The notes under the pieces are model-generated. The model saw only the letters and a list, made by a program, of their open reading frames with translations. It was not told the origin of the DNA and ran no database searches. A stretch of 61,442 nucleotides of DNA, counting the filler. It is 9 parts of 9 records of this genome, joined end to end, with 100 filler letters (N's around TTAATTAATTAA, not from the genome) between each part and the next. Parts side by side here need not be neighbours in the genome. Positions count along the whole stretch, not along the records: positions 31,673 to 37,784 come from SRR31147125_55911; 8 more parts are not named here. One strand, given 5' to 3'. This document shows positions 8,303-37,784 of the stretch, one piece after another. Position numbers and translations under genes: made by a program. Each line of letters opens with the position of its first letter. Position 1 is the stretch's first letter.

Positions 8303-9417
8303 TGAATTTAGTAACTTCAGACAGAAAGAAGAGTTCAAGATTTAATTGGACACTATTTGCAATGGTGATTCTCTTGTTAACTATTGGTTTGATTAATCTC
8401 TACAGTGCTCTAAGCATCTGGGGCGGTGATGTTCGAACTTCGCTTTTCTGGTCACAGATTATGTGGGTCTCTATTGGCCTAGCTTTCATGATCTTTCTTG
8501 CTTTTTTTGACTATAGATTGATCGAGAGAGCAAGCCTCTACATATACATTTTTAGTATAATTCTGTTAGTTGCTGTTTTGTTTTTTGGGAAAGTTGTTGC
8601 TGGGCATAGAAGTTGGTTAAGCATTGGGGGTTTTGCGCTCCAACCTTCGGAGTTTGCAAAGCTAGCTCTTGTAATATTTATGGCAAAATATTTTAGCCAT
8701 AATCCGTATCCAGAAGGGTCGACACTTTCAGGTTTTTGGAGGCCTATTCTATACTCTGCAATCCCAGCGCTTTTGGTAGCCCTTCAGGGTGACCTTGGTT
8801 CTGCAATGTTCTTTGTCTTAATCTTCGCTACTTTTTCTTGGTTTGGAAGATTGAGAGGAAGAGGTGTAACAATTTTAATCACTGCTGCGGTTCTGGGTGC
8901 AGTTGTTTTCTATTTCTTTGGGTTGTCCGATTATCAGAAAAACAGAATTACAAATTTTGTCGATCCAGAAGCTGATCCAAGAGGAAGCGGATATCACGTT
9001 ATTCAATCAAAGATTGCTGTTGGATCCGGTGAGTTGTTTGGCAAAGGGTACAGAAAAGGGAATGTTAATAAACTGAAATATCTTCCGGAAAAGCACACTG
9101 ATTTTATTTTTCCAGTTTTTGCAGAAGAGTGGGGTTTTGCTGGATGTATCTCCGTCCTGTTTTTATATTACCTGCTTTTTTTATCAGGAATAAAGACAGC
9201 GAGGAAATCACGTGACCGAACGGGACTTTTTTTGTCTCTAGGAGTTATGGCCTTTATCTTTTGGCAAGTGGTCATTAATCTGGGAGGAGTTTTAGGATTA
9301 ATGCCTCTAACCGGTGTGACTTTGCCTTTCTTAAGTTATGGAGGATCCTCAACAATAGTAACCCTAGGGTCAATGGGGATAATATTCAGCGTTGGAATGC
9401 GCAGATTTCTGTTTTAG
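8302..9417 (+). CDS. rodA: SEDS peptidoglycan glycosyltransferase RodA
   Basis: QPSEFAK, GYHVIQSKIAVGSG, LPEKHTDFIF, GVTLPFLSYGGSS. Confidence 0.94.
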   Translation: MNLVTSDRKKSSRFNWTLFAMVILLLTIGLINLYSALSIWGGDVRTSLFWSQIMWVSIGLAFMIFLAFFDYRLIERASLYIYIFSIILLVAVLFFGKVVAGHRSWLSIGGFALQPSEFAKLALVIFMAKYFSHNPYPEGSTLSGFWRPILYSAIPALLVALQGDLGSAMFFVLIFATFSWFGRLRGRGVTILITAAVLGAVVFYFFGLSDYQKNRITNFVDPEADPRGSGYHVIQSKIAVGSGELFGKGYRKGNVNKLKYLPEKHTDFIFPVFAEEWGFAGCISVLFLYYLLFLSGIKTARKSRDRTGLFLSLGVMAFIFWQVVINLGGVLGLMPLTGVTLPFLSYGGSSTIVTLGSMGIIFSVGMRRFLF

Positions 9418-11311: not shown

Positions 11312-11348
11312 GGGTGCATAGCTCAGTTGGTTAGAGTACTACCTTGAC
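11312..11348 (+). tRNA. tRNA-Val(GAC), 5' half only (cut by contig end)
   Basis: GGGTGCA TA GCTCAGTTGGTTAGAGT A CTACC TTGAC: acceptor 5' strand, D arm, anticodon stem and loop start. Confidence 0.8.
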
Positions 11349-11448
11349 NNNNNNNNNNNNNNNNNNNNNNNNNNNNNNNNNNNNNNNNNNNNTTAATTAA
11401 TTAANNNNNNNNNNNNNNNNNNNNNNNNNNNNNNNNNNNNNNNNNNNN
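11349..11448. other. Artificial contig linker
   Basis: N44-TTAATTAATTAA-N44, stops in all six frames. Confidence 0.98.
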
Positions 11449-12398
11449 TTTTTTGGTATACTGGTGCAGTTTATTATACTTTCTTTCATAGTCTGTTTTT
11501 AGTGCTCGTTTCGTTAATTATACGGTTGTTTATTAGCAAAAAGTCAAATTTAATGCTTGTCAATACAATAATTTCAGTGTTGTTGGCATTTATTATTTCG
11601 GGTGGAAACTATGCTACGGCCTTGGTATGTGGCGAACTTTTACTATTAGCTTTATTGTATGCAGTATATAGTAAAAATAAAATTGCAATAGTTGCACTTA
11701 TAACTATGGTTGTGGTGTTTTCGATAGGCATGTATATCAGTATTTCTGCACCAGGAAACGCTGTTAGGCAAGTTGCTGCTGAAAATGCGCAATATGTGCA
11801 AAGCGGACCAATAAAAGCGATTGGTATATCTTTTGTTTTTGGTGCATATTTTGCGCTAGAATGGTTTGATTTAGCATGTGTTGGTTTGCTTTTTGTTGCG
11901 ATACTTTTATTTGGTCCAAAATTAGCACAAACAAAATGGAAATTTAGATATCCTGTGCTTGTAATTGCAGTTTCGGTTTGTATATTTGCATCGCAATTTA
12001 CACCTCCAGCATACGCAGCAACCAGCCCTGGTCCGGTTAGATTACGCAATGTCGCATATTTCGTATTTTTATTACTCGTGCTATTTGACGCATTGTATAT
12101 AACGGGTTGGATCATTAGAAAAAGAGATAGTGATGTGCTAAGAGAAGGTGATGCAGGGGTTCACCGTTTTAAGACTGCTAAAATAATCCTGCATCGTCCA
12201 TTTGCTATAATACTTATCGTTTCTATTTTTCTTGGGGCGGCATTTGTTCAGCATGGTATAGACAAAATGCCTTGCGTTGTTTCTGTGTCAGAAATGCGCG
12301 ACGGAACAGCAGAGGAGCAGGCAAAAAAAAGACTTAGCATATTAAATGAAGATGAGGTAATCTATCCATGTGCAAAAAGATCTGAAATTTTGTCTTAA
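11449..12398 (+). CDS. Polytopic membrane protein, DUF6056/GtrII-like (5' truncated)
   Basis: Frame open from the contig edge (FWYTGAVYY); many TM segments; SAPGNAVR motif. Confidence 0.55.
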
Positions 12399-13782: not shown

Positions 13783-14349
13783 TTAAAAAGTTTTTAGCCC
13801 AAAATCTTTAAGATATTCACCTTTTAATAAAAACAAAACCAAATCAGAAAGCTCTTCATTTGTTTTTTGAATATTGTTATTAAACAGATAAACAATTACC
13901 TCTATAGTAGCACCAGTAACGAAAGCTGCAGAATAATTTAGGATATCGTCTTCTACTTTATCTGCACAGATTAATGAAGTAAGACGGTATATTTGTTGCT
14001 GCATTTTATTTCTTAAAATCCATATCAAATTGTTATCAACTAGCAATCCAATCATATCTGGGTCGTTTTTATAAAGACTAAATCCTAGATGCAACATGCT
14101 ATTGACTGAAACATCCTCCATAGATTCCATTTCAGATAAAAGCTTATCAAAAAATTCTTCTATATACAATTCGATAATCTCATCTTTCGAATCAAACAGA
14201 GTATAAAATGTTTGCCTTGAAAGATCTGCACGAGCGCATAGTTCTTTTATAGTAATGCTTTTATATGGTTTTATTCTGCAAAGCTGAATAAGTGATTCTT
14301 CCAGCCATTTTTGTGATTGTAATGCGGTTGGGTTTTTTCCTGTATACAT
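13783..14349 (-). CDS. TetR/AcrR family transcriptional regulator
   Basis: ITIKELCARADLSRQTFYTLFDSK HTH; divergent from the efflux operon. Confidence 0.9.
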   Translation of the reverse strand: MYTGKNPTALQSQKWLEESLIQLCRIKPYKSITIKELCARADLSRQTFYTLFDSKDEIIELYIEEFFDKLLSEMESMEDVSVNSMLHLGFSLYKNDPDMIGLLVDNNLIWILRNKMQQQIYRLTSLICADKVEDDILNYSAAFVTGATIEVIVYLFNNNIQKTNEELSDLVLFLLKGEYLKDFGLKTF

Positions 14350-14387
14350 GACACTTTTCCTTTTATGTAAGACTTAGGTCTAAAATA

Positions 14388-14442
14388 TTGACACGTGTAA
14401 TAGTTATAACTATAATATACATGAAAGTATTACATGTGTCAA
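14388..14442. promoter_or_regulatory. Overlapping divergent sigma70/A promoters within a 15-bp inverted repeat
   Basis: + strand TTGACA(14388)-17 bp-TATAAT(14411); - strand TTGACA(14442)-17 bp-TATATT; arms TTGACACGTGTAATA and TATTACATGTGTCAA differ at one position. Confidence 0.8.
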
Positions 14443-14484
14443 GTTTATGAAGCTGTTATGGCTTAAAAATAGGAGGTAAATATT

Positions 14485-15561
14485 ATGAACAAAAAAATAA
14501 TTGGAATACTTATAGTGCTGGTTTTAATTGTAGCTTTGATAGCATTAAAGTCAGCAGACATTAAAAAGAATACTGAACAAGCAGTAAAGTCGGACATAAG
14601 CGATACAAAAATACCAGTTGAGACTATTGTAGCATCTCAGCAGAAAACAGACGTTTATATTGAATATGTAGGCGTTGTAAAACCTATGCCTATGCAGGAG
14701 ATTTCTTTTGATAGCATTGAAGAGATTAAGGATGTTTATGTTAAATCGGGTATGTTGGTTAAACAAGGTGACCCAATCATACAAATTGAAGTTTCTAATG
14801 CTGATGAAGATATGATTGATGATTTATTTGATCAATTGGATAAGAAAGAAGAAGCATACGATGAAAAAGAAGAAGCAAAGGATGACTTTGAAGATGCCGA
14901 TGAGGATGACGATGACTATGACGATTTAAAAGACGATTATGAGTATTTGGTTGATGTGTATGAAGTTGAAAAGAATGAATATGAAGAAATAAGACAGGAA
15001 TGCTTAGAGTATTTTGTGTTTTGTCCTATGGATGGTTATGTAGCAGACATAAACACAAAAAAAGGTGCATCTGTCTATCCGCACCAAACGATTGCAAAAC
15101 TAGGATTTGAGGAAAACGGCGTTGTTATTGAGATGTCTGCAGATGCTGTTGATACAATTGAAGTGGGTCAAACAATTATGATTGATGTAGACAATATACA
15201 GATTGAGGGAGAGATATTTAATATTGTTGATTTACCGAACCTAGAAACTAATACGTATCAAATCAGTATTTCGTACGATACCGAAAAGTATGATTTGGAA
15301 GTTGGTCAAATGGTTTCGGTTAAATTGCGTAGTGAAACCGTTGCAGGAATAAAAATACCTATTAATATTATCTTAAGTGACGGAGGTGATTATGTATTTG
15401 TTGCGAAAGACGGTATTGCAGTTAAAAAGTATATTGAAGTAGAATCCGTAATAAATGATAGTGCTTTAGTAAGTGGAATTGAACTGCAAGATGAAGTTGT
15501 GTCAAAAGGTATGAAGAATATACAATCTGGCTCAAGGCTGGATGTTATGGATGAAGAATAA
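14485..15561 (+). CDS. RND efflux periplasmic adaptor (MFP)
   Basis: N-terminal TM helix, lipoyl half-motifs VKSGMLVKQGDPI and PMDGYV, C-terminal VFVAKDG..VSKG; upstream of the RND permease. Confidence 0.85.
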   Translation: MNKKIIGILIVLVLIVALIALKSADIKKNTEQAVKSDISDTKIPVETIVASQQKTDVYIEYVGVVKPMPMQEISFDSIEEIKDVYVKSGMLVKQGDPIIQIEVSNADEDMIDDLFDQLDKKEEAYDEKEEAKDDFEDADEDDDDYDDLKDDYEYLVDVYEVEKNEYEEIRQECLEYFVFCPMDGYVADINTKKGASVYPHQTIAKLGFEENGVVIEMSADAVDTIEVGQTIMIDVDNIQIEGEIFNIVDLPNLETNTYQISISYDTEKYDLEVGQMVSVKLRSETVAGIKIPINIILSDGGDYVFVAKDGIAVKKYIEVESVINDSALVSGIELQDEVVSKGMKNIQSGSRLDVMDEE

Positions 15562-15573
15562 GTAGGTGATAGA

Positions 15574-18500
15574 ATGAAAAAACTTATTAATTGGATTATA
15601 TATGAAAGAAAAATAATATTGTTCATATGCGCCATTATTATGATAGCAGGTGTGCTAGCATATTATTTTATACCAAAAGAAGAGAACCCAGATACTACAT
15701 TTCCTGTGGCGATGATAAAAACCATATACCCAGGTGCATCCGCTGAGGTTGTTGAAGAAAATGTGACTAAAGAGATTGAAGATGCCATCTGCGATATGGA
15801 GGACTTAAATAAGCTGACTTCGCATTCTATGGATTCTTCTTCGGTTATGATTGCAGAATTTGATATCAGTTGTGATTGGCAGAGTGTAAAAAATGATCTA
15901 AGTACACGCGTAGGTCAGGTGCAAGATGAATTGCCAAGCGAATGTGAAACAAGTGATGTGGAGACAGACATTGTAGATACAGCGGAGTTTATAATTGCTT
16001 TATCTAGCGATAGTTTCGATGATAAGACGCTGGTTTTTTATGCACAAGATATAAAGGAATCACTTGAAAAGATTGAGGGTGTAACTAAAATTGAAATTGA
16101 AGGCGAAAAGGATAAGGAAGTAAGTATATCTATTGATCCTCAAAAACTTGATTTTTACGATTTATCAAGTGAACAGATAATTGACTTAGTAGCGGCACAA
16201 AATGTCAATATACCAAGTGGTAGTATAGCGTATCAATCAGATGAAATTAGCGTCTCGGTTGGTAGTGAGTTTGAAGACTTAAAAGATGTAGAAGATGTTA
16301 TTGTTGCTTCTAATAATGATGGAATGGGACTAATAAGGCTAAGAGATATTGCCGATATAGAAATACGAGATGCTGGCGGATATTCTTTTAAGCAAGACGG
16401 ACAATCAGCAGTATTGATCAGCGGATACTTTGATTCGGGCAAAAATTCAGTACTGATTGGGCAACAGGTTAGAAGCGAGATTGATAATCTTAAGATCACT
16501 ACGCCTGACGCTATATCGTTTCACGAAGTTGTTTTTTCGCCTGAAGATGTAAGTAAGTCGATAAACGGATTTATGATTTCGTTAATCGAGAGTATTATGC
16601 TAATTATTGTAGTGGTGATGCTTGGTGTAAGGTTTAAAAACGGATTGATTATATCGGTTGCATTACCGTTTTCGATACTGTTTGGATTTATTGCTATGTA
16701 TCTGCTTAAAATAGAGTTTCAGTTTATTTCTATTGCGGCATTGATTATATCCTTGGGTATTTTGGTGGATAATGCTGTTGTGGTAAGTGATTGTATCCAG
16801 CAAAACATTGATGAAGGTATGGGAAAAAAAGCAGCCATTAGAGCAGGGGTCAAACAAACTTCGGTTCCAATTTTAACATCTTCATTGACAACGATTGTAA
16901 CATTTGGAACCATATACTTTTTTGGAGGGTCGGCAGGTGCTGTTGCAAGTACTATTCCTACAGTCGTTATCGCTGCACTGAGTGCAAGCTATATAGCTGC
17001 AATGATCATTATTCCTGCACTGGCCTATATGTTTTTTACGCCAATGCCAAAAGCAAAAAGCGAAGAAAAAAGCTGGCTTAAGAATGTATTCTTAAGTATG
17101 CTTGATGTTGGGTTAAAACATAGAGTAGCTACCATTGTTTTAGCTGTTGCAACATTAGGGGTAGCAGTGTTGTTGTTTATGCAGTTAGGGCTTTCGTTTT
17201 TTCCGTACTCAGATAAACCTGTTTTGTATATTGATGTTAAAAGCGAAAATATGGATATTGAATACACAGAAGCAATTACCGAAGATGTCCACGAGATTTT
17301 GGAGAATCACCCTGCTGTAAGTAACTATACAACAGGAATTGGAAGAGCACTTCCACGCTTTTTTATGACAATACCGTACAATCACGATGCGGATAATTAT
17401 GCGCAAATTATGGTCCAGTTAGATTTGAGCAAGGACGAAAACTATCCTGATAACGATTCCGTTACAATCAGCCTTAAGCAACAATTGGATGAAGCAATTG
17501 TTGGTGCGGAATGTCATGTGAAAAATTTGGAATACGCGTATCCATCGGAAGCTAAGATGGAAATTTTCCTTATGGGTGAAGATTTGGATTTGTTAGCGCA
17601 AACATCCAAGCAGGTACAGTCTGCACTTGAAGAGATTGAGGGAACATATAATATAAGAGATAATCATGTTGATAATACAAAAAAATATGTTGTGAATATT
17701 GATGAAAATAAAACCACAGGTTATTTTAAATATGACATAGCAAAACAAATTAACACAGCGCTTATGGGGTATACAGCTTCGGTTTATCGCGCTGAAGGTG
17801 ATGATATGGATATTGTCGTTGAAGTAGATATAAACTCTTTAGATGATTTAAAGCAGTTACCAATAACTTCTTTATTGACAGGAAAACAAGTACCTTTAGG
17901 TGATATAGCAGAAATTTCTCTTGACGATATTACATCTACTATAAGTCACTATGATAAACAGCGATACATTATGGTGATGTCCGACGTAAAACAAGGGTAT
18001 ACATCATTTGATATCAAGGATGAGTTTGAAGAAAAATACAAAGCAAGTATTATTCCTGAAGACATAGAAGTAGTGTATAAAGGTGAAATAGGCAGTATGG
18101 ATGAGTTTATGGGTGATGCCAGAATCATTACGGCTTGCGCTTTGATGCTTATATACATTATTTTGTTGCTTCAGTTTAAATGCTTTAAGCGTGCCTTAGT
18201 TATTGTTCTTACAATACCACTTTCGCTAATAGGATGTTTTTTGGGGCTATACATCTTTGGCATGGATATGCAGGCAATGGCGATTCTTGGAATCATCGCA
18301 TTGTTTGGTATTGTGGTAAATAATGGTATAATCTTGATTGAGAGCATAGATAGTATGGTCAAGGATGGTTATGAGACTATAGAGGCATGTAAACGTGCAG
18401 TTTCTGTAAGATATAGACCAATAATTATAAGTGCAACAACAACATGTGTAGGCTTAATACCACTTATCTTTTCGGGAGACCCAATGTCCGCACCTATGGC

Positions 18501-19113: not shown

Positions 19114-20419
19114 CAATCATTTGGTATTCCTGTTTTTAGGCGGCTTTATGATTGCCGTTGCAATGGAAAGATGGAATTTGCATCGTAGAATAGCTCTCAA
19201 CATTCTAAATCTGGTTGGTTTCAAACCAAAACGAATGTTAATGGGAATCATGCTCGCAACAGCAGGATTGTCGATGTGGATTTCAAATACTTCCACTACA
19301 ATGATGATGTTTCCGATAGTTACTGCCATAGTAATACAAATTGCCAAAAACACCGAGAATCGAGAAGAAATCGAAAAAACTCTGGGACAAGCGATGATGC
19401 TTGGATTGGCTCATGCTGCCAGTATTGGAGGAGTAGCAACCTTGATCGGTACTCCTCCGAACATCGTTTTTAGCGGATTTATGCAAAAGATGTACCCGGC
19501 AGCACCAGAGATTACATTTTTTCAATGGATGACTTTCGGTCTGCCTTTTGCCATAATAATGATTCCTATAACATGGTACGTCATTCTTCGTATTGGCGGA
19601 AAAGAACTTTCCGAGCTGTCAATCTCGGACGATGGAAAGTCCTTTGTAAAACAGGAACTATTAGATATGGGAAAACTAACAAAACCTGAACTTAGGGTTT
19701 TGATAGTATTTTTGCTTGCCGTTTTGTCACTTGTATTTCGTGCCCCAATACAACTTGGTTCTTTTACAATACCGGGTTGGTCGGAATTCCTGATAGCTCC
19801 AAAATTTGTTCTTGATTCAACCGTACTTATGGCAATGGGAATTTTATTGTTTATTGTGCCTTCTGGTCAAAAGAATAGCAAACTGATCGATGCCCCAAGC
19901 GATATGTATTTAAACGGCTGGAAAGATTTCGAGTCTCGCGCACCATGGGGAATTCTGCTGTTATTTGGAGGTGGATTCGCCCTTGCCAAAGGTTTTGTTG
20001 TAACAGGATTAGCTACACATATTGGTGATAGTCTTAATATTTTGTCCGAAGTTCCGGTGTTGCTTTTGGTTTTGATGGTGTGCTTACTCATGACATTTTT
20101 AACGGAAGTAACATCAAACACTGCCACTACAACCACCATGATGCCGATAGTCGGTGCGGTAGCAGTTGGCATGGGGATAAACCCGATGATTTTAATGATA
20201 CCGGCAGCAGTAAGCGCATCTTGTGCATTTATGCTTCCGGTTGCCACTCCACCAAACGCAATAGTTTTCGGTAGCAAGTGGGTAACGATCCCACACATGT
20301 GTAAAACAGGAATAGCCTTGAATCTTTTGGGAGCTTTGGTTATAACGCTTTTACTTTGGTTGCTCGGAGGATCTGTATTCGATATCCAGTTCACCGGATT
20401 ACCTGAATGGGTGAAATGA
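19114..20419 (+). CDS. DASS/SLC13 sodium:dicarboxylate (or sulfate) symporter, 5' truncated
   Basis: LFLGGF, LHRRIAL, SMWISNT, IGTPPN, TEVTSNTAT, AFMLPVATPPNAIVF. Confidence 0.92.
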
Positions 20420-31672: not shown

Positions 31673-31696
31673 CTCTCAAGACCCTTGATTTTACTG

Positions 31697-31756
31697 TGGT
31701 GCCGGAGGCGAGACTTGAACTCGCACAGGGTTGCCCCCGGAGGATTTTGAGTCCGT
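31697..31756 (-). tRNA. tRNA-Leu(CAA) 3' fragment (att core), lacking acceptor 5' strand and D arm
   Basis: Minus strand GGACT-CAA-AATCC, long variable arm, GCGAG-TTCAAGT-CTCGC, CTCCGGC-ACCA; upstream sequence is not tRNA-like. Confidence 0.85.
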
Positions 31757-31903
31757 ATCCAAGGTAAATAAATGCAAAATGAAAAAGGATATTGCAAATA
31801 AATACAAAGTCAATATAGTTGTTATTTAAGGAAGTTATACAATAAGTGTAGTTGTCCGCAAATTAATGCCAAATACTCAAAATAGCTACCATAATTCGGG
31901 TGA

Positions 31904-31925
31904 GTGTTGCCAAAGTGTTGCCAAA
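31904..31925. repeat. Tandem 11-bp direct repeat, candidate integrase arm-type sites
   Basis: GTGTTGCCAAA twice, about 150 bp from the att core; partial copy ATGCCAAA at 31866. Confidence 0.55.
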
Positions 31926-32224
31926 TCCCCATTTAGATCCCCTCATCAAACTTCATTTTTTAAACTCTCACTAAAATTTTATAAAAGTGCCAAGACCTCT
32001 TATGAAATTTTTATAAGTCGAATGTTATTAACATTCTTTGAACAAAATTTTGTCAATAAATTTGCAAATCTCAGTTACAAACATTTTATCAACACAAAGA
32101 TGTTTATAATTGTTAAAATCTGAGCACCCCCGAGACTCTTATGGGGCGCTCCTTCTTTTCTGCCAGGGAAAGGAAACAATTTCAGACATTATCACCCATT
32201 TGCAGATCAACAAGATATCAGTCT

Positions 32225-32254
32225 TTGACAACACCATGCCACCAAACGTATAAT
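32225..32254 (+). promoter_or_regulatory. Consensus sigma70 promoter
   Basis: TTGACA-18 bp-TATAAT, with ATG 5 nt after the -10. Confidence 0.75.
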
Positions 32255-32259
32255 TGATT

Positions 32260-32517
32260 ATGGAACCAATAAAAAAAGAACTCACAGAAAAAAAAACTAC
32301 AGAAAAAGAAAGCTTCTGGTGCTACGCTGTCATTGTGTTCACGATCTACTTTGCGATAATTCTCGCGGCGCAGATATTTGGGGCCGAAGATTTTGCCGAA
32401 AAAATCCATACGTTTGTCGTGCAATTGGTTTTCGGCATCATTCTATGGAGCGGCATGATCATTTTCCCCATTGCCTTTATTCTTTTTCTGTTTGCGCGGC
32501 TTCGACCGCGACGTTAA
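32260..32517 (+). CDS. Small two-TM membrane protein (element cargo)
   Basis: Two hydrophobic segments and a basic C-terminus; follows the consensus promoter. Confidence 0.6.
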   Translation: MEPIKKELTEKKTTEKESFWCYAVIVFTIYFAIILAAQIFGAEDFAEKIHTFVVQLVFGIILWSGMIIFPIAFILFLFARLRPRR

Positions 32518-32569
32518 CCGGCACAATAGTACCCAGAATAACCGTGCAAGGGCATCAATGAGGGAAACC

Positions 32570-32827
32570 ATGATTGAAGAACTTGTGAGCATTGCTTTTA
32601 GAGGGATGTTTCGATTACTCATGTGGATTTTCATTGAGTTAATCATCGAGCTGGCTTTTTATGTGATCGGTTACCCCATCGTCAAGATAGCCACTTTGGG
32701 TAGGTACCCACGGCACGGCATCTTTGATGGGGCAAAAACGGATGATTCCTCGGAGTTTTACGTCAGCATTGTAGGCTTATTGGTCGCGGTACTATTCTTG
32801 GTAATCGTTTTTTCGACTTCTTTATAA
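32570..32827 (+). CDS. Small membrane protein (element cargo)
   Basis: GAGGG RBS before ATG; two hydrophobic segments around IGYPIVKIATLGRYP. Confidence 0.6.
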   Translation: MIEELVSIAFRGMFRLLMWIFIELIIELAFYVIGYPIVKIATLGRYPRHGIFDGAKTDDSSEFYVSIVGLLVAVLFLVIVFSTSL

Positions 32828-32988
32828 ATTCAAAGCTCAACAATACTCATCCGGACACCCGCGTATCCAATCGTTTGATCGAAATCAATGCCCTAGCTCA
32901 TTGATAAAGTAGCCTGAGCTTGATCTCGGCCGGTAACAATGTCGGTGGCAGACGTTAACCACTCCCTTTAAAATGTTGTCTCTGATCT

Positions 32989-33438
32989 TCATACTTCATC
33001 CTCTTCGGTATCCGGAAACACCACGTTCAACTCATCTTGAAAAATATCATCATCCCTAAGGTCCAACGTGGCGGGGAATGAAAAGTTCACTCCATCATCA
33101 ACCTGGTCAACGGTGACAAGAGCCGGATTGAGTTCTGCCAGTCGAACCAAATACCTGAGAATCTCCATGGTGGGATGAACGTCCTTCATCGATCGTGCAT
33201 ATTCAATTGATGCCCATATCTGGTCAAGGCGGCTCTGGTCGCTCTTATGCTTGGGGTTATATTTTCTATCCAAGTTGTCAGATAGGGCCTTATCTGCCTT
33301 GTCTCGGTCTATTAAGTTTTTCCCACCGATAATCTTGAAGCACCCGGCCAACTTCCCCTGCTTTTTGAGTGTGGTGATTCTTGGAGCTGAAACGTTCCGG
33401 TGTTCAGCGTATTCCTTTTGGGTCATATATTGAGTCAT
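32989..33438 (-). CDS. Small-terminase-like winged-HTH protein 2
   Basis: MTQKEYAEHRNVSAPRITTLKKQGKL...LIDRDKAD resembles prophage TerS DNA-binding N-termini; AGAGGT RBS; starts about 95 bp after cos-like copy 2. Confidence 0.55.
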   Translation of the reverse strand: MTQYMTQKEYAEHRNVSAPRITTLKKQGKLAGCFKIIGGKNLIDRDKADKALSDNLDRKYNPKHKSDQSRLDQIWASIEYARSMKDVHPTMEILRYLVRLAELNPALVTVDQVDDGVNFSFPATLDLRDDDIFQDELNVVFPDTEEDEV

Positions 33439-33531
33439 GGGTTAATTAACCTCTCTTGATTAACGTTAATTTCGATTGAATGTGACAGTTATGGGTTAAC
33501 TCATTTTTAACATCCGTAACTATGGAGAGAT

Positions 33532-33579
33532 GGCGCCACCGTGACCCCTACCATTTCACCCCTTGGTAAGGACCCGCAA
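33532..33579 (-). promoter_or_regulatory. cos-like packaging motif, copy 2
   Basis: TTGCGGGTCCTTAC-N14-GTAGGGGTCACGGTGGCGCC; contains the lambda cosQ heptamer GGGTCCT; repeated at 37187-37234. Confidence 0.6.
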
Positions 33580-33640
33580 AGCCCAAATTGACGCGAGTTT
33601 CAGCCATCACACACTCTCCCCACATCATCACAGATCATCA

Positions 33641-33895
33641 TCAAGATGACCGCCTCATCGGCTCTGTTCTGAGAGCTGTTTCATGTTCAATTGGTGGCCT
33701 TGCCCTGGGATACATTGCATGGAGCAACCGATAACATCCAAGGCATAATTCCCTTACCTCTTCGGGATCTCTTGGGGCGCCACTTGAATCGTTTTTCAAT
33801 GGACACGACGAGCATTTAAAATCATCTCGATCTATCCCAGCTCTCAAGGCATCATCGAGGCATTTGTCATAGTTTTGACAGAAGACATTTCTCAC
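33641..33895 (-). CDS. Small Cys-rich (putative Zn-binding) protein
   Basis: GGAG RBS then GTG; RNVFCQNYDKCLD..FKCSSCP..LCLGC. Confidence 0.55.
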   Translation of the reverse strand: MRNVFCQNYDKCLDDALRAGIDRDDFKCSSCPLKNDSSGAPRDPEEVRELCLGCYRLLHAMYPRARPPIEHETALRTEPMRRSS

Positions 33896-33917
33896 TGTAC
33901 AACTCCACTCATGAAGG

Positions 33918-33957
33918 GACAAAAAGAAATGGCCGGTCCCGCAGAAAGAGAACCGGC
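33918..33957 (-). terminator. Intrinsic terminator after the S49/coiled-coil operon
   Basis: Minus strand GGCCGGTTC-loop-GGACCGGCC-ATTTCTTTTT. Confidence 0.6.
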
Positions 33958-34046
33958 CTAGAGGTACCTCTTGACTGATCCGTGCATACCGTCACGGATG
34001 CAGCCACCACCTTTTGTAAAAGGGCAGGTTGGAAGACCCTTGGCGC

Positions 34047-34394
34047 TTAATAGACCACAGACGTGGAATAACCAAATGATGCCGTTTTGGGTCGGGATGG
34101 AGCGGCGTTTTCTTCCACAATCCCCGCTTGCTCAATGAGCCTCTCATCCATCCGCTCCCTCAGTTCTTCAGTAACAACCTCACACCGTGCGACCTTTGCC
34201 TTTGCATCGGCAATGTCAGAATGGAATCGTTCAATCTCAGCATCGCATAAGTCCTTCTGCTTCAGCTTCTTCTCAAGCTTAAAAATCCGGGCGGCATTCA
34301 GTTCCTTCACCTTCTCAGCGGTCAGATAGTTGGTGGCAAGGCTCGCCAGCGGTGACCAACCTTCCTTCATAATCTCTTTGAAAAGCTTGCTCAT
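34047..34394 (-). CDS. Coiled-coil hypothetical protein
   Basis: Charged helical pattern; TAATG stop/start coupling with the upstream gene. Confidence 0.7.
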   Translation of the reverse strand: MSKLFKEIMKEGWSPLASLATNYLTAEKVKELNAARIFKLEKKLKQKDLCDAEIERFHSDIADAKAKVARCEVVTEELRERMDERLIEQAGIVEENAAPSRPKTASFGYSTSVVY

Positions 34395-35107
34395 TAGCGC
34401 CTCCCTTGGATTCGATATTCCTTGATCACTTTCTCCACGATCTCCGGAGTTACTCCATCCTCACAAGAATCAAGAAGTCTATTGGCTTTATGAATCTTAT
34501 TTCTGATTGCATCTATCCGCTCTTTTACTGGAATAAACCCATCATTGTCTTTTCGAGATTCCTTTATCTCTTCTCTTAGGAAGACAGTGTCTTCGGTATT
34601 CATGAGACCACTGTGCGCTTTCACAATCAACTCAGGTGCGGACTCCCTCATATCACCAGAGTGATGGAAGTAGGTCATCTCAATTCCCTTGATTCGCTCC
34701 CTGATGGCGATTGCTTCAGCACATTTTGAAAAGAACTTTTTGTAAAGCCCGCTCTCTTCTGCTTGCAAAGGTTCGAAGGTTTTCCGAAGGCTTTCTATCT
34801 TCTGCCTGGTCTCATCCGGAAGACTGAAAGCGATTCTTTCCTTGATGGCACTCAGACCTTTTTCGCAAGCATCATTTTTTGACTCAATATCGGTCAGCTC
34901 GGCCTGACGCTTCTTGATACGGGCAGCGACATTTTCACCGCTCATCGCCTCCATCTGAAGCTCAACAAGTTCGGCATATTTCTGGTCATGTTCGGCATCC
35001 AATTTCTCTTGAGCTACTTCAATCTGAATGTGAGATTTGCACAAATCGGCAATGGTGGCCTGTGGATCGTTAAGAACTTTGAACATTATGATATTTCCTT
35101 TTTTCAA
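34394..35107 (-). CDS. Coiled-coil hypothetical protein
   Basis: 237 aa, E/K/L-rich heptad pattern; overlaps the S49 stop codon. Confidence 0.7.
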   Translation of the reverse strand: MKKGNIIMFKVLNDPQATIADLCKSHIQIEVAQEKLDAEHDQKYAELVELQMEAMSGENVAARIKKRQAELTDIESKNDACEKGLSAIKERIAFSLPDETRQKIESLRKTFEPLQAEESGLYKKFFSKCAEAIAIRERIKGIEMTYFHHSGDMRESAPELIVKAHSGLMNTEDTVFLREEIKESRKDNDGFIPVKERIDAIRNKIHKANRLLDSCEDGVTPEIVEKVIKEYRIQGRR

Positions 35108-36276
35108 TGAAGATAACTGGGTGATGATTCAGTCATCGCAAGTTGAGCTTTTCGGAGTTTCTTCTGTTTCTCATCCTTGGCTTTGATCTGGGCATCATGG
35201 GCGGCGGCGATTCGTTTAGCCTCGGCAATCAGGGGATTCTCAGCCTGAGTATTTGTCCTGGATGCCGCGATAGCGTTAAAGGCTTGTGTTACCGGGTTTT
35301 TATCCGCTCCCCCTGTTTCATCAACTGTGGTGGGGGTGTTCTCGCCCCGCCTTTTTGCAGCCAAATCGTCAAAAGCTTTCTCCACAGGGTTTGCTTCAGC
35401 GGCAGCCTTTGCCCTCCGTTTGACATCTTCCACCAACGGATTCACGGTGGTTGCCGGTGTCGGCTTGGGTGTGGTGGCACTCGGTGTGGGTGAAGAGGCA
35501 CTGGCGTATTTATTGGTTTTAGTGGGGGAGAAAATTGTCTGCACCGCTTTTTCAAAAGAGGCTATCTCATCCACGAAACCGATATTGACCGCGTCCTGTT
35601 CATGAAAGATACCGGCCTGGGTCCCTTTAACGGTATCAACAGAGATCCCGCGATTCCAAGCGACGGTCCTGCAAAAGTCCTCATAAATTGAGTCAACATG
35701 CTTTTGGACATCAGCATGGGCTCTTTCCGATAGCGGAGAGTGTGAGCTGAAATCATTTTTCTTGTCACCGGCAATGATGGCCGTGATATTCACACCAAGG
35801 TTTTCGTCGTACTTTGATTGATCCACATGGGTACTGATCACGCCCACAGATCCCACACCGGCATTTCTGGCAAGGAAGATCTTAGATGCAGCAGAAGCAA
35901 GGCCAAACGCTGCGGAATAACACCCATCACTCACAATGACGTAGATAGTGGCCTTTTTTCTCAGTTCATAAATCTTGTCGGCACAATCGAGCATTCCTGT
36001 TGCGACTCCGCCAGGTGAATCAATTATTACGATTACTTTATCTTTCTGGGCGCAGAGTTTTGCCAGCTCAAAACCGATCCTTCGATAAGTGGATGTGAAG
36101 AGGATACCGCCAATGGACATGAAGCCATAATCCTCTTTTGAATCGTCACTTTGGACCCACAGTTTTGGCAGCTCCAAAGTGACGGATGCCTCTTTAAGAT
36201 CTCCGCTCAATAATCCACTTACGGCTGTTTCGACCAGCATCAGCGGCTTTCCGTTAAATTCATAATTCGGTTTCAA
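35104..36276 (-). CDS. S49 peptidase, lambda gpC-like prohead protease with scaffold-like tail
   Basis: IDSPGG, CYSAAFGLAS, GVGSVGVI..HVD.S, AGDKK, F..TVAWNRG, GFVDEI; P/T-rich linker and repeated helical tail. Confidence 0.85.
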   Translation of the reverse strand: MKPNYEFNGKPLMLVETAVSGLLSGDLKEASVTLELPKLWVQSDDSKEDYGFMSIGGILFTSTYRRIGFELAKLCAQKDKVIVIIDSPGGVATGMLDCADKIYELRKKATIYVIVSDGCYSAAFGLASAASKIFLARNAGVGSVGVISTHVDQSKYDENLGVNITAIIAGDKKNDFSSHSPLSERAHADVQKHVDSIYEDFCRTVAWNRGISVDTVKGTQAGIFHEQDAVNIGFVDEIASFEKAVQTIFSPTKTNKYASASSPTPSATTPKPTPATTVNPLVEDVKRRAKAAAEANPVEKAFDDLAAKRRGENTPTTVDETGGADKNPVTQAFNAIAASRTNTQAENPLIAEAKRIAAAHDAQIKAKDEKQKKLRKAQLAMTESSPSYLH

Positions 36277-36467
36277 GATAGCTCTCTTTCACTCAAAAAT
36301 TTTTCAATTCGATCCTCTAATTGTTTTGACGGCTGATTCGTTCCGCGAATGATTCCGTACAGATGGCCGGTACTGACCTTCAATGCCCTTGCCAGTCTTG
36401 CAGTGGGATACCTGCGGAGAAGATCGGCCCTTGGATGCTCTGGAATTTCAGGAAGCGTATGAATCAT
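36273..36467 (-). CDS. Small Cro/Xre-like HTH protein
   Basis: TARLARALKVSTGHLYGIIRG..PS; GGAGG RBS; coupled to the S49 start. Confidence 0.7.
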   Translation of the reverse strand: MIHTLPEIPEHPRADLLRRYPTARLARALKVSTGHLYGIIRGTNQPSKQLEDRIEKFLSERELS

Positions 36468-36514
36468 TTTCTTGTCCTCCCGCTTGAGTTATTGCTAATA
36501 GTATTCATGTAGTG

Positions 36515-36544
36515 AGTATATGCCGCAGAGATAGTGTCTTTCAA
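36515..36544 (-). promoter_or_regulatory. Putative sigma70 promoter for the HTH-S49 operon
   Basis: Minus strand TTGAAA-18 bp-TATACT. Confidence 0.45.
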
Positions 36545-36673
36545 GATAAAAATAATAATAAAATCAGATACTTGTAGTAAATTGTACTTATTTGTATTTG
36601 TTTGTATTTAGTGGTGATTTTTCAGAATGCCCGGATGGATACCGGGCAGGGGGAAGGGGCTCTTTGCCAGAAA

Positions 36674-37126
36674 TCACTTCGGTGTCGGTGTGTACTTTCC
36701 CGGCCTTGCAAATTTGCTGATGATCCCTTTGACTTCATCGGTGAGAACTTTCAAAACCTCTTTTTTCGATTTATCAGTAATCAGAGGGGCAACTCTCATG
36801 GGAATAGCTCCAAGCCCGCTTGACATCTCCGAGACTCGCCACGCCCATGCAGCCTTGAAGTCATCAATCAATATGACCGACCCATCAGCGATGTTGGCCT
36901 TGACGGTTTCGTTCCTGGCCTTGGCCTGCCAGTATTCAAGCTTTGCGGCTGCCAGGTCTTCACCGTCCTCTTCTGATCGATAGACATTTTCTAACCACCA
37001 ATTCAGGACATCTTTAAGATTCCACTTTCCATGCCCGGCTTTGGGACATCCCTTATCGGCCCAGAGTCTTACCGCCCGATCTGAGATATCGAATAACTCT
37101 GCAATTTGATTTGTTGTTAGAAGCAT
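36674..37126 (-). CDS. Terminase small subunit, lambda Nu1-like (or Rpp-like)
   Basis: TNQIAELFDISDRAVRLWADKGCP...WNLKDVLNWW winged HTH, a helical segment, then SGLGAIP.RVAP; starts about 60 bp after cos-like copy 1. Confidence 0.75.
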   Translation of the reverse strand: MLLTTNQIAELFDISDRAVRLWADKGCPKAGHGKWNLKDVLNWWLENVYRSEEDGEDLAAAKLEYWQAKARNETVKANIADGSVILIDDFKAAWAWRVSEMSSGLGAIPMRVAPLITDKSKKEVLKVLTDEVKGIISKFARPGKYTPTPK

Positions 37127-37186
37127 CTATTCAAATGTTCCACGGAATTCGGAAGTAGCGTTTTTATGTTACAAGTAGGCGGCAAA

Positions 37187-37234
37187 GGCGTCCCCGTGAC
37201 CCCTACTAAACTACGTTACAGTAAGGACCCGCAA
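37187..37234 (-). promoter_or_regulatory. cos-like packaging motif, copy 1
   Basis: TTGCGGGTCCTTAC-N14-GTAGGGGTCACGGGGACGCC; compare lambda CGGGTCCTT...CAGGTTACGGGGCGGC. Confidence 0.65.
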
Positions 37235-37242
37235 GGGTTAGA

Positions 37243-37784
37243 TTAAGCGGCTATCTGAACCACTGGGAACAATGGCCCTGTAACATCAACATATCTTTTC
37301 AAACGATCTTTCACGTTTTTATAAACGTCGTGATAGTCGCTGCATTTATCCGTCTCATCAACAATCCATTCTGCGATTAAATCCTCAATGCCCATCAGCC
37401 GATTAAGAGCACGTTCACTCATGGTGTCTCGGAAATTATCAGGGACGGCGTTAGTTTCGAAAAGCTCTCGGTAGACCAACTTAGTGAACAGCCTGTAATA
37501 CCGGTGAGCATTCCGACTGCCATTTGACTCCGCGTATTCAACAAAAACCTGTACAGCATCGGTAAAAGATCTCCGGCAGGTTTTGCCGTTGAGACGTGCC
37601 TGTTGAAAAGATGCAGACTGACGGCGGAGTAACTCGCGTTCCATCAACTCGAAAGCGTTATAAAAGTCGATCTTCCATTGAAGGGCTTTTTTGCCGTTAA
37701 AACCCATGCATAAAATCGAGAAAGACTTCCTGTCCATCTCATACTTTTTGCGTTCTTCACCCTTTGAATCTACATAATCAACCA
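37243..37784 (-). CDS. Rha family phage regulatory protein, 5' truncated
   Basis: YVDSKGEERKKYEMDRKSFSILCMGFNGKKALQWKIDFYNAFELME. Confidence 0.88.

Follow-up and report, generated by a model that had tools for sequence, protein, structure and literature searches.

Can a phage satellite intervene in the capsid assembly of its helper with a maturation protease of its own and without a capsid gene? The question is raised by one contig (SRR31147125_55911) of a 61,442-nucleotide stretch of DNA, here called the window, in which nine contigs are joined by eight N44-TTAATTAATTAA-N44 linkers and neighbours are not physical context. The region singled out by the original prediction is exactly one complete contig (positions 31673-37784, 6112 bp), and it had been put forward as a new type of satellite in which two cassettes, each with a cos-like (cohesive-end) site and a gene for a small terminase subunit (TerS), surround a protease-scaffold operon. 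We read it as the distal end, away from the integrase, of a satellite that is integrated at tRNA-Leu(CAA), resembles phage-inducible chromosomal islands (PICIs) and exploits lambda-like siphophages with an E-type capsid protein, and give this reading a probability of roughly 0.6.

In place of the lambda-like order terS-terL-portal-protease-capsid, the contig has TerS, then a 64-residue helix-turn-helix (HTH) protein and an S49 prohead protease, and after the protease a helical protein designated CC. As predicted, neither the large terminase subunit gene (terL) nor a portal gene lies between terS and the protease gene, and no capsid gene follows; open reading frame (ORF) calls with Pfam, PHROG and NCBIfam scans gave no TerL, portal or capsid ORF within the contig, and the visible part likewise holds none of the capsid protein, portal and head-tail connectors that typify the capsid-forming PICIs (cf-PICIs). 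Genes of the packaging-hijack kind are present: TerS and a second TerS-like gene, each behind a copy of a repeated element that is a putative packaging site. Further, the 3' part of a tRNA-Leu(CAA) forms an attachment (att) fragment, which begins at the same tRNA position as the 107-nt att repeat of a related element described below (L006) and ends the present element ~1.2 kb beyond the last TerS-like gene; ARAGORN found no whole tRNA in the contig. The 6.1 kb hold no integrase or replication module. P4-type families (Sid, Psu, Delta, alpha-type primase) had no Pfam or PHROG match among the contig proteins (P4 Psu, 3rx6, against the CC model, E 0.92), Rfam found nothing in the contig, and a DNA search of the contig against phage records gave no match.

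The protease-CC pair is not confined to this contig. A member of the CC family was found at 11 places, namely the window, L006, L007, L012, L013, L014, L015, L016, L017, L018 and L020, with L015, L016 and L018 forming one lineage. A prohead protease lies directly upstream of CC at seven of the ten loci with a visible upstream gene (six of nine by lineage), and it may be of S49 type (window, L006, L015, L016, L017), a ClpP-type head protease (L007; phrog_133, 5e-81) or a member of a third family (L014; phrog_976, 5e-49). Wherever 5 kb or more can be read on the upstream side (L006, L007, L012, L015 and L017), the locus has a tyrosine integrase and replication genes, and among the ORFs scanned at these loci, which were the larger ones and not every small one, no TerL, portal or major capsid family was matched. 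Of the predicted gene order, the protease-CC pair recurs in the small integrase-replication elements L006, L007, L015 and L017.

The individual loci give an impression of what such elements look like when more of them can be seen. L006, a contig of a Desulfobacterium metagenome-assembled genome (MAG), has direct repeats of 107 nt lying 16.9 kb apart, one of which overlaps an intact tRNA-Leu(CAA); between them are an integrase, RhuM/Fic, an excisionase-like HTH gene, a DnaD-like initiator, a superfamily 2 (SF2) helicase, an S49 protease, CC, small HTH genes, two unknowns and an O-like initiator. L007, an IMG/VR contig, is bounded by a 141-nt terminal direct repeat containing a tRNA 3' end and is therefore a complete element of ~9.8 kb, with excisionase-like, DnaD-like, DnaB and SF2 helicase genes, a 66-residue ORF, the protease, CC and an integrase. 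L015 and L017 share the order integrase, primase or initiator, SF2 helicase, (HTH), protease, CC, and the HTH protein directly upstream of the L017 protease is 39% identical to that of the window. L020 (163-1177, minus strand, genome G295) amounts to a protease-less version of the window arrangement: the core box discussed below is followed by a 169-residue TerS-like protein (phrog_57, 3e-14), with no TerL after it, a KE-rich 132-residue ORF and a CC-family N-terminus (hhalign probability 91%). Homologues of CC (62% identical) and of the second TerS-like protein (84%) were each traced to a longest contig of 22,899 bp, so that these two relatives probably sit on the same contig. L012, with a distant CC member, has a P4-like layout of tRNA-Met, integrase, a large primase of 906 residues and CC. 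Three ORFs after CC, L012 also encodes an 823-residue tape-measure-like protein (14029-16500; phrog_8462, 5e-48), followed by IS21 genes; such a gene would be unusual in a satellite. The idea that L014 shares it was rejected, its 701-residue ORF being a transposase.

Assembled reads indicate how much of the element lies beyond the contig. One run, which may be the source of the contig, yields a Logan contig identical to 31725-37784 at depth 96.1, and a 12,566-nt contig of matching depth (90.6) adjoins the end that carries the Rha-family regulator (37755-37784); the element consequently extends at least 12.5 kb further, in keeping with the prediction that its integrase and replication end could lie outside the contig. 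In the same run, 31674-31754 has ~2x the depth of the remaining contig, and one Logan contig runs on from 31754 into an apparent tRNA D-arm, which implies that an intact tRNA-Leu with the same 3' flank also exists. At very low depth, a second run (X2) shows only the tRNA part and traces of one further bin. This evidence consists of assembled contigs, and ends, circles and expression are beyond such data. The additional sequence of at least 12.5 kb, like the presence of Rha and TerS, which are ordinary phage genes, would also suit a complete temperate phage of unconventional gene order, with TerL, portal, capsid and tail genes in the part that is not seen. We consider this very improbable, because TerL directly follows TerS in lambda-like phages, as it does in L001 and L021, because the att fragment closes the element so soon after the last TerS-like gene, and because the fully bounded relatives of 9.8 and 16.9 kb are without such genes among their scanned ORFs. 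It also counts against a complete phage that regulation and replication genes, not structural ones, are to be expected upstream of Rha. The G+C of the nine contigs of the window ranges from 0.33 to 0.58, and the bin behind them may be mixed.

CC, the constant member of these loci, is a rare protein. Comparison with relatives places its true start at M8. An exhaustive HMMER search of 1.84 billion proteins returned 55 representatives at E<=1e-3 and 30 at 1e-10, nearly all of them 210-290 residues long and aligned from residue 1, and within one phylum members occur in 4 of 401 genomes. CC is matched by none of the Pfam, PHROG and NCBIfam models. The AlphaFold2 (AF2) model, built on a 28-sequence alignment, is confident (mean per-residue confidence, pLDDT, 95; predicted template-modelling score, pTM, 0.80) and all-helical apart from a small beta hairpin; its helices form a long hairpin (12-48 and 54-133) and a C-terminal group of three. 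Foldseek found no match at E<=1e-3 in PDB or BFVD, and VIA-align found generic helical hairpins only (best Z 10.4, where ~13 is the tool's meaningful level for helical models). The possibility, raised with the prediction, that a coiled-coil ORF might be a fragment of a capsid or portal can be set aside for CC, given that a confident all-helical model is neither an HK97-fold capsid protein nor a portal piece. Scans of viral contigs with CC and of genome contigs with the protease, as single proteins, gave nothing or ordinary lambda-like phages only. The retention of CC while the family of the protease is exchanged argues that CC acts in prohead assembly or maturation, and CC is proposed as a candidate scaffold or size-determination partner of the protease.

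The protease itself passes the threshold of the S49 family comfortably (PF01343, 92.9 bits against a cutoff of 24.9) and has a long Ala/Pro/Lys-rich C-terminal extension. Ser121, which by comparison with SppA and gpC we take to be the nucleophile position, is invariant in an alignment of six proteases. The window protease is 41-48% identical to those of L006, L015 and L017 and 26% identical to that of the L021 phage, and the four satellite-type proteases share a C-terminal SYLH end. A basic motif of the type L-x-E/D-D-A-K-K-R-A is internal in the satellite-type proteases, where the window protease has it twice, and stands at the extreme C-terminus in two phage proteases; compared with the tails of scaffolds and proteases, it may be read as a capsid-targeting signal.

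TerS links the contig to a phage of helper type. It has two matches among 401 genomes of the phylum of L006, and the strong one lies on L021, a different contig of the same MAG as L006. All 150 residues of the window protein are 68% identical to residues 1-149 of the 174-residue L021 TerS, which heads a lambda-like module of TerL (phrog_15), adaptor (phrog_75), portal (phrog_21), S49 protease (phrog_53), E-type capsid protein (phrog_29, PF03864), tape measure and J-like fibre. The 25 additional residues of L021 TerS are a Lys-rich basic tail abutting TerL, and the window TerS lacks them. TerL binding resides in the C-terminal ~40 residues of lambda Nu1, and compared with TerS, Rpp proteins are shorter by 30-40 residues (PMC9026076). 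A sequence search of PDB with the window TerS gave only sub-threshold rows of TerS DNA-binding domains (E 0.05-0.45). Set beside the head module of L021 or lambda (Nu1-A-W-B-C/Nu3-D-E), the contig is alike in TerS, in the boxes upstream of it and in having an S49 protease, and differs in that TerL, adaptor, portal and capsid are absent, the protease belongs to a separate subgroup, and CC and a second TerS-like gene are added.

These same features could be those of a decaying lambda-like prophage, in which a deletion between TerS and the protease removed TerL and portal, the capsid and tail genes disappeared, and what remains does not work as a unit. TerS and its upstream region are phage-derived, the protein is shorter than its phage copy, the tRNA fragment marks an old integration, and a 6.1-kb piece is all that is visible. 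Decay nevertheless seems unlikely: all ORFs are intact and tightly spaced, the protease is nearer to those of small elements than to that of the L021 phage, and the protease-CC pair is kept across independent small elements with three protease families, one of these elements (L007) being complete between att repeats. The phage head operons that were examined (L001 and L021), moreover, contain nothing that corresponds to CC.

The second TerS-like protein suggests a further link with packaging. Its phrog_57 match covers the N-terminal residues 3-82 only, and it has few relatives (identities of 84%, 74% and 40% in an alignment); another protein, P0058, has just the N-terminal domain in common with it and continues as a normal TerS. 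AF2 is confident for residues 1-55 alone, a winged HTH and a long helix with pLDDT ~80-87, and the rest falls below 60. The best VIA row for this model is 6hn7_A (Z 7.9, root-mean-square deviation 2.9 A over 58 residues), within 1 Z of excisionases and TerS domains; this is an Rpp-TerS entry, and its title and the identity of chain B as TerS suggest that chain A is Rpp. By sequence, nothing meaningful was found in PDB and there was no match to Rpp, and the two TerS-like proteins of the window show no pairwise similarity. In L016 and L018 a 149-residue protein encoded two genes after CC, behind the core box, has two segments in common with the second TerS-like protein, in swapped order. The architecture predicted from sequence and model, and the position of the gene, are Rpp-like and make the protein a candidate Rpp; in view of a match to phrog_66 (E 0.003), it may instead be an excisionase near att.

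The predicted pair of cos-like sites is real in that both belong to one 48-nt element, whose copies, 3655 nt apart, match at 14 of 14 and 18 of 20 positions with identical spacing and differ wholly in the central 14 nt. Each copy is ~60-95 nt upstream of a TerS-like start, with its core box ~100-140 nt upstream. The bipartite repeat had 0 matches in an exact search of IMG/VR, and an RNA-hairpin reading was rejected, folding being no better than that of shuffled sequence (z 0.10 and -0.66). Copy 1 and the region upstream of TerS in L021 have two boxes in common, the core box and a 15-nt box. The 9-mer of the core, CGGGTCCTT, occurs nine times against 1.42 expected (first-order Markov model; 172.6 kb of non-redundant loci plus the contig) and is absent from the remainder of the window. 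The nine matches represent seven independent lineages (both window copies, L006, L012, L015/16/18, L020 and L021), and each is followed on its own strand, at a distance of 85-150 nt, by a gene for a TerS, a TerS-like protein or a small HTH protein. Downstream of the 9-mer there is a looser common shape, an ACGG-type box and then a GC-rich run, and the adjacent proteins differ. In enterobacterial PICIs, cosQ and cosN are almost the same as in the helper and cosB is different (PMC9026076). A conserved core with a differing downstream part, as in those islands, favours the CGGGTCCTT element as a putative cos core.

The repeat might instead be a shared late-promoter, activator-binding or operator site, a minority possibility in our judgement and one to be taken seriously. 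Shared activator sites of this sort are found in P2 and P4, where they serve Ogr and Delta. Two copies in one element, each before a gene, would suit such a function, as would the boxes of L012 and L006, which precede small HTH genes not recognisable as TerS, and the unrelated palindromic repeat that stands before the same operon, and others, in L017. The cos reading is favoured by two considerations. Within the 20 kb of L021 examined, the box occurs once only, just upstream of TerS, where lambda-like phages have cos; and it is kept while the downstream DNA-binding proteins differ, which is the pattern of a conserved cosN and a variable cosB (PMC9026076). The repeat of L017 is a 34-nt element with the palindrome AACAATATTGTT, in five copies (8730-8763, 12305-12338, 18313-18346, 19532-19626), one of which lies ~100 nt before the HTH-protease-CC operon, and probably serves L017 as an operator or promoter.

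If the contig is indeed part of a PICI-like satellite, a plausible course of events can be outlined. On infection by the helper, or its induction, the packaging proteins of the element would direct the helper TerL to the element DNA; they would be the tail-less, helper-type TerS and the Rpp-like protein, in which a TerS DNA-binding domain is combined with a new C-terminal part, and their target would be a site whose core box is common to element and helper. The small HTH protein, the protease and CC, from a separate operon, would enter helper procapsid assembly by way of the basic, capsid-targeting motif of the protease and would reshape or re-time assembly, most likely to give capsids sized for a genome of ~17-20 kb. 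The membrane ORFs would be cargo genes that a separate promoter keeps expressed while the element is integrated. Capsid remodelling by the protease and CC is what we infer from these features. The visible 6.1 kb with the adjoining 12.5 kb, and the 16.9 kb of L006, suggest elements of ~17-20 kb, which would be ~0.4 of a lambda-like genome of 40-48 kb. A ratio of ~0.4 is of the order of the T=7 to T=4 redirection in P2/P4 and in 80alpha and the Staphylococcus aureus pathogenicity island (SaPI) SaPI1. The 9.8-kb L007 fits this argument less neatly.

The same operon could also serve mainly as anti-phage interference, sabotaging the assembly or maturation of procapsids and protecting the host population while contributing little or nothing to the transfer of the element. 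Known satellites do disturb the capsid assembly and packaging of their helpers (PMC9026076, PMC10945586), and the window protease keeps both the capsid-targeting-type motif and the serine at the nucleophile position. L006, likewise, carries other defence- or toxin-like cargo (RhuM/Fic-Doc). We think interference as the main function distinctly unlikely, as TerS, the Rpp-like protein and a phage-shared cis site beside the operon point to packaging of the element itself; the interference reading is compatible with the satellite reading and not exclusive of it.

Several observations weigh against the satellite reading or its parts and have to be set beside it. Only 6.1 kb are visible, so that an integrase, replication genes and a lack of structural genes are presumed for the remaining 12.5 kb or more; at the related loci, the scan covered the larger ORFs. 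Three of the ten loci (L012, L013 and L020) have no recognisable protease before CC, the preceding gene being an unassigned ORF of 200 residues in L012 and of 173 in L013. The layouts differ, in that the integrase adjoins the tRNA fragment in L006 and the cargo end adjoins it in the window. Beyond the protease, CC and the HTH protein (L017), the sole similarity to the other loci is the weak one between the second TerS-like protein and the 149-residue ORF of L016 and L018. The predicted fold of CC stays below the meaningful level of VIA-align and matches generic helical hairpins only. Two cos sites 3.65 kb apart would be unusual in one element, and L017 has unrelated, promoter- or operator-like repeats before such operons.

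How the putative satellite relates to known systems depends on which of its parts is compared. The Gram-negative cos-type PICIs with Rpp (the EcCICFT073 group) are similar in being small islands integrated at a tRNA or other site, with a lambda-like helper and a layout of cos followed by a gene; in encoding a protein of ~150 residues with a TerS-type winged HTH, a long helix and a different C-terminal part; and in a site whose core is common to the helper and whose downstream part differs (PMC9026076). The window differs from them in keeping a near-full helper-type TerS and in adding a prohead protease with a helical partner, as well as in the lack of a sequence match to Rpp. The cf-PICIs are also satellites with head-morphogenesis genes, including a head maturation protease and TerS (PMC10085698, PMC13230959), and a Vibrio plasmid satellite combines capsid E with a head protease, a small terminase and a regulator of MerR-like type (PMC13230959). 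Unlike the present elements, however, cf-PICIs encode a capsid protein, portal, head-tail connectors and TerL; the contig and the scanned ORFs of its relatives showed none of these. P4 Sid, CpmA and CpmB of SaPIs, and TcaP of the PICI-like elements (PLEs) offer a parallel to CC as largely helical satellite proteins of ~200-250 residues from a morphogenesis operon, the capsid role of CC being a proposal (PMC7552001, PMC10945586). CC differs from all of these in having no detectable sequence similarity or specific fold similarity to them and in its coupling to a prohead protease, which may belong to any one of three families. Sid, CpmB and TcaP act on the capsid size of the helper.

Module 2 of the marine virion-encapsidated integrative mobile elements (VEIMEs) comes close by its description, since these are integrative satellites without capsid genes that have a 'periplasmic serine protease' (PMC9618062). 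VEIMEs are reported to be packaged as concatemers in full-size capsids. A serine protease is 'occasionally also found in PICI', where the authors' guess is that it modifies hijacked capsids (PMC10085698). The proteases of VEIMEs and PICIs, however, are annotated in passing, with no partner protein, cis site or mechanism given. Searches of the full-text literature yielded no description of a satellite with TerS, a prohead protease, a dedicated helical partner and no capsid gene; supplements may list related genes. The claim of a new satellite type therefore stands in part: the protease-CC pair in elements without TerL, portal or capsid matches speaks for it, and against it, serine proteases in PICIs and VEIMEs are already in print and the second TerS-like gene resembles Rpp.

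A bolder proposal, which we hold tentatively and regard as less likely than not, is that the contig represents an undescribed satellite family, seen to date mainly in sulfate-reducer-type genomes and sediment metagenomes, whose own protease and CC re-programme helper capsid assembly, a device rebuilt with three unrelated protease families, and whose two packaging cassettes, one with a tail-less TerS and one with an Rpp-like protein, each lie behind a cos core shared with the helper. To our knowledge, intervention with a self-encoded maturation protease has been demonstrated for no satellite; known satellites resize capsids with scaffold-like proteins or build capsids of their own. If true, a protease with a dedicated helical partner, in which the family of the protease can be swapped, would represent a third route of capsid piracy, and the unannotated CC family would acquire a testable function. 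More broadly, packaging redirection of the Rpp type would extend beyond enterobacteria to anaerobic sediment bacteria, in which we know of no satellite that has been studied. The CC family beside a prohead protease would also provide a sequence marker for finding such elements.

The features of the contig are collected in the table.

Table. Features of the 6112-bp contig, listed from the Rha end to the tRNA-Leu end; positions are those of the window.
Feature	Position	Strand	Basis
Rha-family phage regulator, C-terminal part, cut by the contig end	37243-37784	-	phrog_2657 2.2e-22; TIGR02681 1.2e-11
48-nt element, copy 1 (core CGGGTCCTT), upstream of TerS; cos-like or promoter/operator site	37187-37234	-	repeat analysis
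Nu1-type TerS, 150 residues	36674-37126	-	phrog_57 1.3e-25
Promoter-like site, 10/12, in the 200-nt AT-rich gap before the HTH-protease operon	36515-36544	-	consensus match only
HTH protein, 64 residues; stop overlaps the protease start	36273-36467	-	weak HTH_3, E 0.064; L017 homologue
S49 (lambda gpC-type) prohead protease, 390 residues	35104-36276	-	PF01343 2.5e-26; phrog_53 2.8e-67
Helical-hairpin protein CC, 230 residues, 18 nt after the protease	34394-35086	-	family and AF2 model
ORF of 115 residues; start adjoins the CC stop	34047-34394	-	ORF call
Terminator-like hairpin, 10-pair stem and T run, closing the HTH-protease-CC-115-residue operon	33931-33958	-	consensus match only
Cys-rich ORF, 93 residues	33641-33922	-	ORF call
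48-nt element, copy 2, upstream of the second TerS-like gene	33532-33579	-	repeat analysis
Second TerS-like gene, 149 residues: TerS DNA-binding domain and unrelated acidic C-terminal part	32989-33438	-	phrog_57 3e-9
Two overlapping small membrane-protein ORFs	32254-32517, 32471-32827	+	ORF calls
Sigma-70 promoter, 12/12 consensus	32225-32254	+	consensus match
tRNA-Leu(CAA), 3' 59 nt, from the anticodon stem through CCA; att-type repeat, at the end away from the intact tRNA	31696-31754	-	alignment to L006 tRNA-Leu

Family searches and ORF calls recover the genes that had been listed for the contig (Rha, TerS, HTH, S49 protease, Cys-rich ORF, TerS-like gene, membrane ORFs and tRNA-Leu fragment). 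The membrane ORFs, however, had been placed in line with the rest and are in fact convergent with the other genes. The 115-residue ORF, put forward as a second coiled-coil protein and at most a putative one, has no Pfam, PHROG or NCBIfam match and no BLASTP match in the related loci, and the Cys-rich ORF has no match in the same three family collections. In L021 (173-481), as in the window, the core-box region and a TerS-type gene come after a small Cys-rich ORF; the two Cys-rich ORFs show no significant mutual similarity.

Other repeats lie near the ends of these elements. A tandem GTGTTGCCAAA-type repeat (31896-31929) is found ~140 nt from the tRNA fragment, and a near-identical 34-mer stands in a 4.2-kb Logan contig of the possible source run, 33 nt before the sequence that starts the contig studied here; such repeats may be integrase arm-type sites, or may signal that another island lies in tandem at this tRNA. 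An analogous GGGTTGCTA doublet is present in L006 beside both att ends. The convergent gap that separates the second TerS-like gene from the membrane ORFs contains a 31-mer (32837-32867), and the adjoining 12.5-kb contig has the same 31-mer, but for 1 mismatch, near its far end. Finally, L006 has a C4 antisense RNA (RF01695, 49.2 bits against a gathering threshold of 45) at 16917-16995, upstream of its O-like initiator, and several blocks of a non-coding-looking region of ~0.7-1 kb are duplicated there (11326-12394 and 14346-15017, 74-91% identity), each copy just upstream of a gene of no assigned function, one for a 289-residue secreted protein with 15-nt tandem repeats and the other for a 486-residue protein.

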